Below the pieces are notes generated by a model, which saw only the letters and a list, made by a program, of their open reading frames with translations, searched no databases and was not told the DNA's origin. The translations under genes were made by a program, and so were the position numbers. Shown here piece by piece: positions 1,670-9,399 of a stretch of 27,716 nt of DNA (position 1 is the first letter of the stretch; every line of letters starts with the position of its first letter). Origin of the DNA: a virus (lineage: Duplodnaviria > Heunggongvirae > Uroviricota > Caudoviricetes). The stretch lies in IMG/VR virus record IMGVR_UViG_2534681772_000017; one strand, written 5' to 3'.

Positions 1670-2512
1670 TTAGATATGTTTTTCCAGAGTAAATACAACA
1701 GCACCAGATGGTGTGATTTCTGATAGGTTGCATTCAAAATCAACAGACTTATTTGATAGCCTGACTTTATTACCCGGCAGTCGCACAACGTCGAAAACGT
1801 CGAACGCGCCATCTATCCCGATGAGCCAACGGCCATTGCCGATTTTGCATGCTGAATTATCGACAAGCCAAGATGAGCTAACGCCATCTACAAAAACCAA
1901 ATCATCAGAGTTAGCAGGAATCATTGATGGGTCAGGTTGCCAACGCCCAGCGTCTTTTAGCTCACCAGATTCAAGGCGGGATTTTTTTATCGTTAAAATG
2001 TCCGAAAAGCTAGCCTCCTTACTTTCTCGCATTTTCCCCTTTCCGGTCGCTAACCATTCCAGCGATACACCAGTATCAAGCGCGCATGTCACAACCACAT
2101 CACCGGGGAAGAAATCTCGTCTTACCCAGGTGCTGATAGTGCCTGAGGAGATATCCAACAAATCCCCAAGCTCCTTTTGCATTGTAAAACCATAGGCGTC
2201 AAGGATGCGCCTTAAAACAGGTTTTCCACCACTCGCCAAAATCTCGTCATAAAGTGCTTTTCCTTTCAACGGTGACGAATCTTGCAAATTCAAATTGGAA
2301 ATTTGACCAGTCAGCAGCCAGTTTAAATCAGCACCAGTATCTAATGAGCACTGAATGATGGCTTTGCCTGGAAAACTGTTTCGCTGAACCCAAGTGCTGA
2401 CGCTGTTTGACGGGACGCCAAGCACTTCCGCCAAAGCCTTTTGCGTGCTGACACCATACGCCGAACTTATCCGCTCAATCACATCTTGCGTATTCAAATC
2501 TTCATCATTCAT
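1670..2512 (-). CDS. cI: 186-type CI immunity repressor with tandemly duplicated N-terminal HTH domain
   Basis: 280 aa. Two consecutive copies of a Phage_CI_repr-like motif (ISSAYGVSTQKALAEVLGV...STWVQRNSFPG...CSLDTGADLNWLLTG and ILDAYGFTMQKELGDLLDI...STWVRRDFFPG...CALDTGVSLEWLATG), then a roughly 115-aa C-terminal domain. Divergent from the lytic operon, the usual immunity-region layout. Confidence 0.82.
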   Translation of the reverse strand: MNDEDLNTQDVIERISSAYGVSTQKALAEVLGVPSNSVSTWVQRNSFPGKAIIQCSLDTGADLNWLLTGQISNLNLQDSSPLKGKALYDEILASGGKPVLRRILDAYGFTMQKELGDLLDISSGTISTWVRRDFFPGDVVVTCALDTGVSLEWLATGKGKMRESKEASFSDILTIKKSRLESGELKDAGRWQPDPSMIPANSDDLVFVDGVSSSWLVDNSACKIGNGRWLIGIDGAFDVFDVVRLPGNKVRLSNKSVDFECNLSEITPSGAVVFTLEKHI

Positions 2513-4838: not shown

Positions 4839-5116
4839 GAAAAACACATCAACTAAAAATTCGGCCTGAGTTTTTTCAGGCTGTCATCAATGGAACAAAA
4901 AAAGCCGAGTTTCGCCGTGCTGACCGTGATTTTGCTGTAGGGGATTTACTTTGCTTAAACGAGTACGGAGCCTGCGTATATGACCCGAAAAAGGTCGGTT
5001 TTACCGGCGCTTTTGTCTACGTGCTGGTGACTCATGTAACTGACCTTAGCGAGTGGGCTCCCGGCTATGTGATGCTAAGCATACAGCGTAGACAAATGGG
5101 GGAACTATGCGGGTAA
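4835..5116 (+). CDS. ASCH/DUF3850-like small protein
   Basis: Start set at MRKTHQLKIRPEFF (ATGA overlap with the previous stop). Motif HQLKI..EFF..V..G.KKAEFRRADRDF.VGD.L fits the DUF3850/ASCH beta-barrel fold, which is predicted to bind RNA. Confidence 0.55.
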   Translation: MRKTHQLKIRPEFFQAVINGTKKAEFRRADRDFAVGDLLCLNEYGACVYDPKKVGFTGAFVYVLVTHVTDLSEWAPGYVMLSIQRRQMGELCG

Positions 5117-7341
5117 GCGTTAACTTTGCTTACCCGTGGAATGCCCCACGGTCGGCAATAGCCAGCCCATACCTTACATATGACCAACAGCATCGCCGCG
5201 ACCGTATGTTCGCGGCTTTGCTGCATGCGAGAAAAGTGCTTTCTCTCCAGCCCGAGTGCGTGCGCTTTGACGTTTATCGCACCGCTGCGGTGCTGGAGCA
5301 AAATCAGGGCAGTCAACGAGCCAATGCCTTTTTAATCAGCTTCTGCAAAAAGGCATTGCCACGTCTTGAACTGGTCGCAAAAAAATACGAGTGCGCGGGT
5401 ATCAACAGCAATGTATCAGCCGCTGTTTTCGATGGTCATTTTGATACCGAGCTTATGCAATATCTGGCGTCACGCATGGTTAATATGGTCGCCAGATATA
5501 ACCGCCTCCCTGACATGTCGCGCGCCGATATTGACCTGCTGGGCGCTGATATTGCTAATTTCATTCGCGCTGAACTGGCAGAGCATGACGACGCTGATTC
5601 TGATTTTGGTGAGCTGGCGACGCTGCATGGTTGGTATATGCGAGCAGGGTTAATTACGCTGCAGTTTGGCATTACTCCTCCGCATTGGGCGGGAACAACC
5701 ACAAAATACTTTGACCCGGATAAAGTTGCCCCGGCTATCGCTCGTATGTTTAACGATGTGTGGTGGCGTGGTCGCCTGCGTCGCATTGCGGCTGCATGGC
5801 GCGAACACCTGCAAATCGCAGTCGGAAATGTCAGCAAAAAACGACACGCATACGCGAGTAAAAACTGCGTGACCGACTGGCGTGAGCAAAAGCGCCGCAC
5901 GCGCGAGTTTCTCAAGGGGCTGGATCTCGAAGACGAAGACGGCAACCGCATCAGCCTGATTGAAAAATACGACGGTTCGGTCGCTAACCCTGCGATACGC
6001 CGCTGCGAGCTGATGACCCGCATCCGTGGGTTTGAAAACATCTGCAATGAGCTCGGTTATGTCGGTGAGTTTTACACCCTGACAGCACCGTCTAAATATC
6101 ACGCCACCACCAAAGCAGGCTACCGTAACAGTAAATGGAACGGAGCCAGCCCGTCGGACACGCAGAGTTATCTAACCGGCCTTTGGGCGCGCATTCGTGC
6201 CAAGTTGCACCGGGAAGAAATCCGCATTTTCGGCATACGTGTTGCCGAGCCTCATCACGACGGGACGCCTCACTGGCATATGCTTATGTTCATGCTGCCG
6301 GAAGACGTCGAGCGTGTGCGCCTCATCATTCGCGATTATGCGTGGGAGGAAGACCATCACGAACTGAGAAGCGATAAAGCCAAAAAGGCACGCTTTCACG
6401 CCGAGGCCATTGACCCGGAAAAAGGCAGCGCTACCGGCTATGTCGCTAAATACATTTCAAAAAATATCGACGGCTATGCTCTCGATGGTGAGACCGATGA
6501 CGAAAGCGGCGAACTACTGAAAGAGACAGCACCCGCCGTTTCAGCATGGGCGGCGCGCTGGCATATCCGTCAGTTTCAGTTTATCGGCGGTGCGCCGGTG
6601 ACGGTCTACCGTGAGTTGCGTCGTCTCGCCGATACCGAGACCGCGCACGGTCTGAGCGTTGAATTTGCCGCTGTCCATGATGCCGCTGACGCCGGTGACT
6701 GGGCTGGTTACGTTAATGCGCAGGGTGGGCCGTTTGTCCGTCGCGATGATTTGCAGGTGCGCACACTGTATGAACCGCGCGCTGATTTTAATCAGTATGG
6801 CGAGGAAACCGTCTGTATCCGTGGTGTTTACGACTCTGTTGTCGGCGCTGGTACCCCTATTTTAACCCGGTTAACGCAGTGGAAAATTGTGCCTAAGCGT
6901 GCCGTTGATTTGGCCGTTGACGTTAAGGGCGCTCCTGCGCCCTCTCGGAGTTCTGTCAATAACTGTACGGGAAGCGAAAGCGATCCACCGATACTGGATT
7001 TAACAAAACCGCTGAGTCGGCGTGAAAGACGAGAGCTGACGAACCGACTAAGGAAGCAAAAGCCAGCAATACGGCGAAAATTCATCCACGGAACGGATGA
7101 GCAAAACGCAGCTATAGCGAAAACTATCGACGAGATACATCTGACAACCGGCATTAATATCAGTCGGGGTGAAGCCCTGCACCTGATGGCCGGTGGTAAA
7201 AGTTGTTTTGATGGCAAATGGCTACGCGGAACGGCCAAAGGAGAAATATTTTCCGCTGCGCCATCGCATGAGGCTAAAGCTCGGAAAATCCTTAATCGTG
7301 TTGCGGCGATGGCTGAAGCATCAAAACCAATACATGATTAA
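5107..7341 (+). CDS. A: Replication initiation endonuclease, P2 gpA type (rolling-circle initiator)
   Basis: 744 aa. N-terminal YPWNAPR (P2 A has YAWNAPRE), HUH motif GTPHWHMLMF and the catalytic tyrosine motif GYVAKYISKNIDGYALDG. SD GGGGGA 4 nt before the ATG. Confidence 0.95.
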   Translation: MRVSVNFAYPWNAPRSAIASPYLTYDQQHRRDRMFAALLHARKVLSLQPECVRFDVYRTAAVLEQNQGSQRANAFLISFCKKALPRLELVAKKYECAGINSNVSAAVFDGHFDTELMQYLASRMVNMVARYNRLPDMSRADIDLLGADIANFIRAELAEHDDADSDFGELATLHGWYMRAGLITLQFGITPPHWAGTTTKYFDPDKVAPAIARMFNDVWWRGRLRRIAAAWREHLQIAVGNVSKKRHAYASKNCVTDWREQKRRTREFLKGLDLEDEDGNRISLIEKYDGSVANPAIRRCELMTRIRGFENICNELGYVGEFYTLTAPSKYHATTKAGYRNSKWNGASPSDTQSYLTGLWARIRAKLHREEIRIFGIRVAEPHHDGTPHWHMLMFMLPEDVERVRLIIRDYAWEEDHHELRSDKAKKARFHAEAIDPEKGSATGYVAKYISKNIDGYALDGETDDESGELLKETAPAVSAWAARWHIRQFQFIGGAPVTVYRELRRLADTETAHGLSVEFAAVHDAADAGDWAGYVNAQGGPFVRRDDLQVRTLYEPRADFNQYGEETVCIRGVYDSVVGAGTPILTRLTQWKIVPKRAVDLAVDVKGAPAPSRSSVNNCTGSESDPPILDLTKPLSRRERRELTNRLRKQKPAIRRKFIHGTDEQNAAIAKTIDEIHLTTGINISRGEALHLMAGGKSCFDGKWLRGTAKGEIFSAAPSHEAKARKILNRVAAMAEASKPIHD

Positions 7342-7401
7342 TTCATATCCATATCATGCACATACGGCAATCGCCCTATTCGTTTTTTTTCTTCCCATCT
7401 T

Positions 7402-7435
7402 TTGCCAATACGTGCTACTGTATAAATATACAGTA
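7402..7435 (+). promoter_or_regulatory. SOS-regulated promoter with LexA box
   Basis: TACTGTATAAATATACAGTA at 7416-7435 is a perfect CTGT-N8-ACAG LexA operator. It overlaps an AT-rich -10 region and lies downstream of a -35-like TTGCCA (7402-7407). Directly upstream of the 7455 ORF. Confidence 0.85.
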
Positions 7436-7454
7436 ACCCTATGGGAGGGATTTC

Positions 7455-7637
7455 ATGGTTGGCGAACATTTCAGCCGAACGCAGCAAAAGTGGGCTTGTG
7501 TGCAATTTATTGCCGAGGTATCTCTGATTGCAAACTGCAAGCCATCAGACTTAAAGCTCGCGCTCACTCTCATTGCAGACCTAGCAAACAGCGAAAATAA
7601 CGAAACCGAAGATGATATTTTTTATAAGGCTGATTAG
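7455..7637 (+). CDS. Small SOS-induced ORF, possible N-terminal part of a Tum-like antirepressor
   Basis: 60-aa ORF with SD GGGAGGGA 5 nt upstream, immediately downstream of the LexA box. Ends at a TAG that is in frame with the DinI-like ORF that follows. Confidence 0.45.
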   Translation: MVGEHFSRTQQKWACVQFIAEVSLIANCKPSDLKLALTLIADLANSENNETEDDIFYKAD

Positions 7638-7640
7638 ATT

Positions 7641-7874
7641 ATGAGAATCAATATCACGTTGGATAAAGAGCAAAAAATTAGTCAGGCAACGTTGGATGCG
7701 CTTGAGGCTGAGCTGTACCGCAATCTGCAACCTATTTACCCAAAGACCGCTATCCGCATTCGCAAGGGCTCCGCAAATGGCGTTGAGCTAAGCGGTTTGA
7801 AACTGGACGAAGATAAAAAACGAGTAATGGAAATCATGCAGCAGGTATGGGAGGACGATAGCTGGTTGCATTAA
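7641..7874 (+). CDS. DinI-family protein (DinI/Tum C-terminal domain-like)
   Basis: 77 aa (MRINITLDKEQKIS...LDALEAELYRNLQPIYP...EIMQQVWEDDSWLH) with the DinI-like pattern of an N-terminal MRIE/N beta strand and an acidic, Trp-containing C-terminal helix. In the same reading frame as the 7455 ORF. Confidence 0.8.
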   Translation: MRINITLDKEQKISQATLDALEAELYRNLQPIYPKTAIRIRKGSANGVELSGLKLDEDKKRVMEIMQQVWEDDSWLH

Positions 7875-7968
7875 CAAATGCCGCCGGTGCTGAAACTCGC
7901 TTTCAGTGCTGGCGGGGTTGAACAACGAGCCCCGCGAGGCGTTAGCCTGCCCCGTAGAGACCGCCCCC

Positions 7969-7997
7969 AACCGGCACGATTAAAGCCGGTTTTTTTA
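7969..7997 (+). terminator. Putative intrinsic terminator after the SOS operon
   Basis: AACCGGC-(9 nt)-GCCGGTT stem followed by a T-run, about 100 bp downstream of the DinI-like stop. Confidence 0.5.
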
Positions 7998-8156
7998 TGC
8001 CATTTTTCCGCGATTTCTCCGCTTTTTAGCCGTGCATGCAACAGGTGCATGGTTTTGCATGCGTCGTGGTTGCCCGTTCTGGCCGTGCGCCGTCAGTGCT
8101 GGCGCGGATCCAGAGTGGTCATGCAACTGCATTAAAACCGACCCATAAAGCGGGCA

Positions 8157-8175
8157 GGCGTGGCGGGGAAAGCAT
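8157..8175. other. cos site (19-nt cohesive-end sequence of P2/186 type)
   Basis: GGCGTGGCGGGGAAAGCAT lies between gene A and the portal gene. From memory it matches the 186 cohesive end and differs at 2 of 19 positions from P2 cos (GGCGAGGCGGGGAAAGCAC). Flanked by TGCATGC-type and GT-rich repeats. Confidence 0.7.
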
Positions 8176-8318
8176 TGCGCGCCAGAGGTGGTGCGGAATA
8201 ATAAAAATTATCGTCTGAGCGCGTCGTGATGGCGCTGTCGTGGTTGCTGTTGGTTCGTTGGTGGTCGGGTGTGGTCGTGCGTGCGTGGTGCGTCTGAGGC
8301 GTGATGATGGCGGGGTAT

Positions 8319-8342
8319 GAAAAAGCCGCCATGCTGGCGGCT
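8319..8342 (-). terminator. Intrinsic terminator downstream of portal gene Q
   Basis: Minus-strand hairpin GCCGCC-AGCAU-GGCGGC followed by UUUUU, 10 bp past the Q stop codon. Confidence 0.7.
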
Positions 8343-8352
8343 TGAGGGGGAG

Positions 8353-9399
8353 TTATTCCGGGTTGTCGAGGGTGTACTCTTTGAACCTGATGACCTCCAT
8401 ACCGAGCCAGTCGTTTACCTCCCTGAACCTGTCCTGCAGGGGTGACAGCTCGTTACGCACAAATACCTTTGCCACCTTCTCAACGTCACCGAGTGAACCT
8501 ATATTCTCGGGCTTGCCGCCCATGAGCTGGAACGGTACGCGGTGCGCGTCCATCAGGTCGGCGGCGCTGGCTTTCTTGATGTTGAAAAAGTCATCCTTTG
8601 TAGCGACCTCGCTCAGTGGCAAGATTTTGATGCCGTCCGGTTTTGCGCCCGGAGCGTAGAAAAACAGGTTCTTAAAGTTGCCTAGCCCTTTCGAGTTGCG
8701 CATCGCCTCGCGTAGCGATTCGACGTCGGTCGCGCTCTGCGCCGGGTCGGTCACATACATGATGTAACCCGCGTGCGCGCCGTTCTGGTAATACTTGCGG
8801 CGGAACAGCGTAGCGGATTCATTCAGCCAGGCAGAATTAAGCGCGCTGAGATATTCGGGCAGGCCGTAAATCTCCTGATTTATATCGGGCTCCAGCAGGT
8901 GAAACACGGTGTCAGGTGCGAACTCATGCGGCAGAGTGAAGTTTTCCACAAACCAGAAAATCGAATCATCGACCCCGCGCCGGGTGTATTTGGCCGGTGA
9001 GGCCAGCAGCTTGATTAACTGGCCGGTGACGCTGTGGCGCTGCTCAAGAAAGGCGTTGCCGAATACCAGATAGTCGAGCGCAAAGCGGCTGAAATCCTGA
9101 CGGGACAGCAACGGGTGCGGAATGTAGGTGCTCGCTAGCACGTTGCGCTTAACGTAAATCGGTGAGCTGTGATGTACAGCAGAGCGCAGGCTCTTTGCCA
9201 GCCCGGAGAAGCTGACCGGCGGCTCGTACCATTTGCCGTTACTGATGCACTCGACGTAATCCAGAATGTCACGCTTATCGAGTACCGGCACCGGCTCGCC
9301 GAAGGTGAAAGCTGTTGTTTTTGGCGGTGCGCTGGCGGTCAGGTGTTGTGGCTTGCTGGCCTTCTGCGCAGCGGCTTTGCGGGATTTTTGCTTACCCAT
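8353..9399 (-). CDS. Q: Capsid portal protein (P2 gpQ)
   Basis: 348 aa, size and sequence character of P2 Q. Leftward orientation next to cos and sharing an overlap with gene P, as in P2/186. Confidence 0.93.
   Translation of the reverse strand: MGKQKSRKAAAQKASKPQHLTASAPPKTTAFTFGEPVPVLDKRDILDYVECISNGKWYEPPVSFSGLAKSLRSAVHHSSPIYVKRNVLASTYIPHPLLSRQDFSRFALDYLVFGNAFLEQRHSVTGQLIKLLASPAKYTRRGVDDSIFWFVENFTLPHEFAPDTVFHLLEPDINQEIYGLPEYLSALNSAWLNESATLFRRKYYQNGAHAGYIMYVTDPAQSATDVESLREAMRNSKGLGNFKNLFFYAPGAKPDGIKILPLSEVATKDDFFNIKKASAADLMDAHRVPFQLMGGKPENIGSLGDVEKVAKVFVRNELSPLQDRFREVNDWLGMEVIRFKEYTLDNPE

Follow-up and report, generated by a model that had tools for sequence, protein, structure and literature searches.

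A PSP3-type tumA–tumB pair in a P2-like prophage: the in-frame TAG is very probably a genuine gene boundary within a LexA-repressed SOS operon

The DNA analysed here, hereafter the window, is 27,716 nucleotides long and is a P2-like prophage of the 186/PSP3 (Eganvirus) type, whose genes follow one another in the order integrase, 280-aa CI-type repressor, an ORF at the Apl/Cox position, CII, gpA replicase (5107-7341), tumA, tumB, a cos-like 19-mer, and the portal and terminase genes. Two small genes, tumA and tumB, sit between the gpA replicase gene and cos plus the portal gene, behind a LexA-type promoter, as is found for an antirepressor of the 186 Tum type. The original prediction had pointed to two ORFs in the same frame with one stop codon between them, and the geometry is real: read from the sequence and the ORF list, tumA runs on the + strand from the ATG at 7455 to the TAG at 7635-7637 (60 aa) and tumB from the ATG at 7641 to the TAA at 7872-7874 (77 aa), the ATT triplet 7638-7640 lies between them, and both 7455 and 7641 are divisible by 3. 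The fused product of about 139 aa proposed at that time agrees with our count (60 + 1 + 1 + 77 = 139 aa), the length of about 146 aa given there for Tum of phage 186 was right, and the second ORF indeed has a weak and distant Shine-Dalgarno sequence, the only purine-rich match being AAGG at 7626-7629, 11 nt 5' of the ATG. The coordinates of the features are collected in Table 1.

Table 1. Features of the tumA–tumB region and of the CI-type repressor gene in the window
Feature	Position	Strand	Basis or remark
CI-type immunity repressor, 280 aa, duplicated HTH	1670..2512	-	71% identical to PSP3 CI, 31% to 186 CI; PHROG phrog_4
p95-like SOS promoter (putative), -35 TTCCCA 7392-7397, 18-nt spacer, -10 TACTGT 7416-7421	7392..7421	+	Alignment to 186 p95 only
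LexA (SOS) box TACTGTATAAATATACAGTA, overlaps -10	7416..7435	+	Sole CTGT-N8-ACAG in the 27.7-kb window
tumA Shine-Dalgarno GGAGG	7444..7448	+	6 nt 5' of ATG; G-rich stretch broadly kept in alignment
tumA, predicted 60-aa antirepressor, homologue of 186 Tum N-terminal domain	7455..7637	+	PSP3 identity, hhalign, dN/dS
tumA–tumB junction TAG-ATT-ATG	7635..7643	+	tumA stop, 3-nt spacer, tumB start
tumB, 77-aa DinI-like protein	7641..7874	+	Pfam DinI, PDB 1GHH, PSP3 TumB identity
13-bp hairpin, strong, without T-run	7883..7913	+	ViennaRNA fold; directly 3' of tumB stop
Terminator-like hairpin AACCGGC-N9-GCCGGTT then T7	7969..7997	+	ViennaRNA fold and sequence
cos-like 19-mer GGCGTGGCGGGGAAAGCAT	8157..8175	+	1 match in window vs 0.01 expected by chance

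The p95 promoter and LexA box of phage 186 are homologous to the region upstream of tumA, with a near base-for-base alignment. In 186 the annotated promoter reads TTCACA at -35 and TACTGT at -10; a generic sigma-70 scan called no promoter at the p95-like site of the window because just 7 of the 12 consensus positions are matched. The LexA box aligns column for column with the annotated 186 LexA site and is kept in 7/7 aligned relatives. Downstream of tumB, the first of the two hairpins could be a partial terminator like t95a of 186, an RNA-stability element or a packaging-related site, while the second is the probable end of the SOS operon and was missed by a simple terminator scan owing to its 9-nt loop. 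The cos-like 19-mer lies between tumB and the portal gene, from which it follows that cos is internal to the prophage, the expected location in P2/186-like phages. Elsewhere in the window, a minus-strand ORF between int and cI (1252-1812) possibly encodes a secreted or lipoprotein moron: from an internal start, its product would have an N-terminus resembling a signal peptide (MKRSIFALALLASFTVAAQP...). Upstream of that start, the ORF is extended by a long stretch that runs into the end of cI.

TumB belongs to the DinI family. It matches Pfam PF06183 (DinI) with an E value of 7e-24 and a score of 84.3 bits, above the gathering threshold of 24.2, and residues 1-77 align end to end with E. coli DinI (PDB 1GHH; E 2.6e-9), so that the full length of the family is covered, including the acidic C-terminal WEDDSW helix. 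Against NCBIfam NF007893, the equivalog of chromosomal DinI, it reaches 52.3 bits, below the cut-off of 111, and we therefore regard TumB as a phage paralogue of DinI and not as the host dinI gene. TumB also shares 46-47% identity with the last 76 aa of 186 Tum, and its Met1 (MRINITLDKEQ...) aligns with V71 of 186 Tum (VKVNITLDKDQ...), which is annotated as an internal GTG start. The 186 record lists nested tum products, among them a 76-aa "truncated Tum - modulates SOS induction" from this internal GTG, and this annotation indicates that phage 186 makes a DinI-only protein by internal initiation. The complete 186 Tum is a LexA-controlled antirepressor of CI and, according to Lemire et al. 2011 (PMC3121763), has the look of a fusion between an antirepressor and DinI. 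It consists of two modules in one polypeptide, joined by a linker of about 12 residues with an internal RBS (AAGGAGG) before the GTG, whereas the window has two cistrons; the linker may once have been an intergenic region. Downstream of tum, 186 has orf97.

The upstream gene product has no Pfam or NCBIfam family and falls into PHROG phrog_1993, which is labelled 'unknown function'; moreover, pairwise BLAST gives no alignment between TumA and residues 1-70 of 186 Tum. These results speak for two unrelated neighbours, in which case the 60-aa ORF would not be a Tum homologue, and the inducer would lie elsewhere or CI would be cleaved by RecA. When the hypothetical 139-aa fusion is compared with 186 Tum by BLASTP, both halves align (38% identity, E 2e-31), the DinI half driving the score. 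Profile-profile comparison tells against unrelated neighbours: hhalign of a 26-member TumA alignment against a 26-member alignment of the 186-type N-domain gave 85% (E 6e-6) in register, and when more divergent TumA relatives of about 60 aa were added the value rose to 94.9% (E 4.6e-8, 53 columns), the motif common to both being V-x-x-IA-x7-C-x3-[DE]-x2-[IL]AL-x-LIA-[DE]-[IL]-A. The suggestion that the 60-aa ORF might match the N-terminus of Tum is hence borne out at the profile level and fails in pairwise BLAST of the N-halves. An HMM of TumA searched against 1.84 billion representatives did not reach 186-type Tum directly, and a PDB sequence search with TumA retrieved nothing meaningful. In its AF2 model (pLDDT 74.5), TumA forms a hairpin of two helices, 3-25 and 30-45, with pLDDT 86-90 over residues 11-40, after which come a short third helix (48-53) and an acidic tail of low confidence; Foldseek of this model against PDB found no match at E <= 0.001, as expected for a protein so small and helical. 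Because the profile match comes in the same register, the syntenic position behind a homologous LexA-controlled promoter is identical, and the PSP3 annotation and the literature favour the Tum assignment, it is very unlikely that the two genes are unrelated neighbours.

The same pair of ORFs is annotated as tumA and tumB in phage PSP3 (GenBank AY135486; AAN08399, AAN08400), where it likewise lies between the replicase gene and cos and has the same TAG-ATT-ATG junction. By tblastn, PSP3 TumA and TumB are 100% and 98.7% identical to their counterparts in the window, the DNA being about 94% identical, which places the locus in the PSP3 type; PSP3 differs in having extra ORFs, gp37 and gp38, between tumB and cos, which the window is without. 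The PSP3 record describes tumA as 'similar to 5' end 186 tum; UV induction of prophage' and tumB as 'similar to dinI and 3' end of 186 tum'. A passage of Lemire et al. (PMC3121763), which refers to Bunny et al. 2002 and to a personal communication of G. Christie, states that in PSP3 and Fels-2 tum is split by a stop codon and that the upstream gene is the antirepressor; the antirepressor activity of PSP3 TumA is thus sourced to the GenBank note and to a personal communication cited second-hand. A literature search under the names tumA, tumB and PSP3 found no relevant paper, and a search of a phage collection with the 63-aa Fels-2-like Tum, aimed at the Fels-2 record, gave fused 186-type proteins only among the matches listed. 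With blastn against phage records, the locus was found at 94-97% identity in PSP3, SEN1, SI22, SW9, Midge and RCIP0057, in all of which it is annotated as two genes. In Citrobacter sp. Awk 4, TumA and TumB are identical to those of the window and the rest is 87-96% identical. Since the locus is the known tumA–tumB operon of the PSP3 type, the arrangement is not new: it is already known from the PSP3 annotation and from Lemire et al. 2011.

Experimental information comes from a syntenic relative. In the Phollow study, deletion of 'tum' from DuoHS, a prophage of E. coli HS, abolished induction by mitomycin C, and so did lexA(Ind-) (PMC12055606). The primers and locus tag in the supplement of that study, together with the HS genome, identify the deleted gene as ECHS_RS04495, which encodes 62 aa, is preceded by the replicase gene and by LexA boxes, and is syntenic with tumA. 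It ends in TGA, and the DinI-like gene ECHS_RS04500, whose product is 79% identical to TumB of the window, follows 10 nt on, out of frame and with its own GGTGA-type RBS. The clean deletion removed the upstream ORF and left the DinI-like ORF intact; in DuoHS, therefore, the small upstream ORF alone is the essential inducer. Its product resembles TumA only marginally (hhalign 53%, E 1.4e-4, in register), so the deletion experiment is to be taken as an analogy from a syntenic relative and not as proof for TumA. A comparable operon design is found in the dinI-gfoA/gftA SOS operons of the Gifsy prophages, which, like tumA–tumB, are LexA-controlled and encode a DinI homologue next to a small antirepressor; in the Gifsy systems the antirepressor acts by binding to a repressor that is non-cleavable (Lemire et al. 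2011). Their gene order is reversed, dinI being first, and they belong to lambdoid and not to P2-like phages.

The junction was surveyed in 112 loci, comprising 28 species-representative genomes, 80 IMG/VR contigs, 3 phage records and the window. TAG, 3 nt and an in-frame ATG follow one another in 55 of them, with a spacer codon that varies; one locus has TAA and 3 nt, likewise in frame; in three, the DinI ORF is out of frame after gaps of 2, 13 and 94 nt (L024, L029 and L091, respectively); and in the remaining 53, TumA is without a DinI-like ORF downstream (TAG 29, TAA 18, TGA 6). The in-frame 3-nt junction is accordingly present in 56 of the 59 DinI-bearing loci, with TAG in 55, swapped tumB alleles included. 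In 21 of the 28 species-representative loci no DinI gene occurs within 10 kb of tumA. The original prediction had asked whether related prophages carry a sense codon at the position of the tumA stop; none was found, either in the 112 loci or among the best 120 TumA homologues. All of these 120 end in ...YKA[DE] and are without a DinI domain; the few longer ones, 74-93 aa, have N-terminal extensions, mostly over-called starts that read through the LexA box, and one longer homologue has a divergent C-terminal tail. The TumA HMM search recovered 37 cluster representatives, nearly all close to 60 aa in length (33-109 aa), with three longer, one of 137 aa and two multi-stretch matches of 773 and 931 aa; no TumA-DinI fusion was seen among those inspected, which were of at most 137 aa. 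A 137-aa match, considered as a candidate fusion, was rejected as an over-extended ORF.

Several observations from the survey bear on the fate of tumB. Four loci (L071, L072, L080 and L085, at about 1681-1720) have just a tumB stub after the TumA TAG, for instance 'ATT ATG AGA ATT AAT ATC GCC...' or 'GTT ATG TAA', a sign that the DinI-like gene has been lost by a secondary deletion. In many E. coli genomes (matches H55-H64), 99% homology to the window ends about 40 nt into tumB (window 7641-7681); these loci carry tumB alleles about 46% identical to that of the window behind TumA proteins at least 97% identical, from which it appears that the modules recombine, with a breakpoint just inside tumB. 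Among the 81 complete E. coli genomes with the locus, the 30 listed are annotated by PGAP with two intact genes and never with a pseudogene. In an Atlantibacter MAG (L016, 10187-10416), the locus with TAA and 3 nt, the DinI-like ORF after TumA matches TumB in two pieces in different frames, the probable cause being a frameshift in tumB or a faulty assembly.

In IMG/VR we counted 244 TumA-type and 424 186-type loci, roughly 670. The 186-type N-domain is fused to DinI in 79 of the best 80 of the 424, a figure that is not a frequency estimate, as taking the best 80 favours fused forms. The same N-domain also occurs as a stand-alone protein of 63-67 aa, and at some loci the 63-aa form is followed by a methylase gene and not by dinI. 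Both halves of the PSP3-type locus bear the mark of purifying selection: for TumA, dN/dS calculated from codons 1-46 lies at 0.04-0.09, the synonymous differences amounting to 54-94% and thus being near saturation; for TumB, pN/pS is 0.06 between close sequences and 0.3-0.5 (uncorrected) where saturation is reached. We conclude that both are maintained as functional proteins.

The identity with PSP3 tumA/tumB, the homology of the LexA box and promoter, the homology of TumA to the Tum N-domain, the DinI assignment of TumB, the purifying selection and the lack of fused TumA-type relatives are all read from sequence and point to the same arrangement. It is highly probable that tumA and tumB form an SOS operon of two genes under LexA repression, located at the right end of a P2-like (Eganvirus) prophage of the PSP3/186 type, and that the TAG is a genuine gene boundary. 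Among the readings offered by the original prediction, a natural two-peptide arrangement is the one that gains support, from the PSP3 tumA/tumB annotation and from the literature. Phage 186 then represents a variant with both modules fused.

Another of those readings was a gene dependent on read-through, in which some ribosomes would decode the TAG and produce a 139-aa fused Tum resembling that of 186, needed for induction or tuning it. The ORFs are in frame with only TAG-ATT between them, the fused architecture works in 186, and the TAG + 3 nt + ATG junction recurs in 55/59 DinI-bearing loci, among them loci whose tumB alleles share just 46% identity and loci whose TumA shares just 78%. In addition, TAG, the rarest stop codon in enterobacteria, ends 86 of the 112 TumA genes. 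This excess extends to 29 of the 53 genes without a downstream DinI gene and, the count over the 112 loci having been taken without weighting for phylogeny, may reflect shared ancestry. Several findings stand against read-through: the frame is lost in diverged relatives, namely the three out-of-frame loci and DuoHS; TAA and TGA are used as stops as well; about half of the TumA genes are without a downstream ORF to read into; and the RNA fold of the junction shows no significant structure relative to shuffled sequences (z -0.64), with no Rfam match in 7000-8600. The conservation of the junction is itself explicable by the TumA C-terminus, FYKA[DE], by the first 13 codons of tumB, after which the alleles recombine, and by low divergence. 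Nor is the shared frame evidence for a single gene, because among the DinI-bearing relatives it is kept only with near-identical junction DNA and is broken in several diverged ones. In frame, stop codon and RNA structure, the locus thus differs from programmed stop-codon read-through, and the dependence on read-through, unsupported when stop identity and frame vary in diverged relatives and the junction has no RNA structure, strikes us as highly improbable. We give just as slim a chance to low-level amber read-through, or to efficient read-through in supE-type hosts, at the in-frame TAG + 3 nt junction; if it did take place, it would yield a 139-aa TumA-TumB fusion, and hence two antirepressor isoforms whose ratio would be set by the termination efficiency of the host.

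The third reading, that a 186-type fused tum gained a stop codon which inactivated the antirepressor and left the prophage non-inducible, may be invoked from the fused form of 186 and of the best 186-type loci and from the one in-frame stop that parts the halves in the window, but it is rejected as extremely unlikely, for no TumA-type relative has a sense codon at the stop position, the same stop is found in the viable phages PSP3, SEN1, SW9, Midge and RCIP0057, TumA evolves under strong constraint and is often without a DinI gene, the 186-type N-domain likewise stands alone as a 63-aa protein without any DinI gene, and in DuoHS the stand-alone upstream ORF is required for induction. A pseudogene, in the sense of a nonsense-disrupted tum, was considered on its own account and set aside, given the 112 loci and 120 proteins without a sense codon, the dN/dS of TumA and the short-distance pN/pS of TumB.

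Under the two-gene SOS operon, the presumed target of TumA is the CI-type repressor encoded in the same element, as expected for a 186-type system. This repressor matches the PHROG family of transcriptional repressors phrog_4 (E 4e-55) and contains two tandem HTH repeats, at about residues 10-70 and 100-160; the CI of PSP3 (286 aa) has a duplicated HTH like that of the window, whereas the CI of 186 (192 aa) has a single one. The first HTH repeat of the window CI is far more diverged from PSP3 CI than the remainder of the protein. As TumA is 100% identical to that of PSP3 while this repeat has diverged, the comparison of sequences suggests that TumA would contact the conserved second HTH or the C-terminal domain of CI.

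Taking these elements together, the following scenario may be proposed. DNA damage would lead to cleavage of LexA and to derepression of the p95-like promoter, and TumA, a 60-aa helical protein, would be made from its strong RBS. TumA would bind and inactivate the CI-type repressor, and the prophage would switch to lytic growth. That TumA would prevent CI from binding its operators and would be needed for SOS induction receives indirect support from the PSP3 note and the personal communication and, by analogy, from the DuoHS deletion in a distant syntenic relative. TumB would be produced as a separate DinI-like protein, ribosomes probably stopping at the TAG of tumA and restarting 3 nt on. A weak RBS and just 3 nt between stop and start are a typical setting for termination-reinitiation coupling, and the junction is likely a site of such coupling. 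TumB would correspond to the DinI-only product that 186 obtains from its internal GTG, and presumably modulates RecA and the SOS response.

The value of this finding as a discovery is small; its practical value lies in annotation. TumA is under-annotated, being 'hypothetical' in PGAP and of 'unknown function' in PHROGs. In the Klebsiella phage RCIP0057 (L002, 1795-2028), it is the DinI-like ORF that bears the label 'SOS operon TUM protein', and the real TumA is called 'hypothetical protein'. Prophages read as lacking an antirepressor, or as carrying a broken one, would be wrongly predicted to be non-inducible. Within this family of phages, the many stand-alone TumA genes, the swapped tumB alleles and the fused form of 186 show the antirepressor and DinI modules to be separable.
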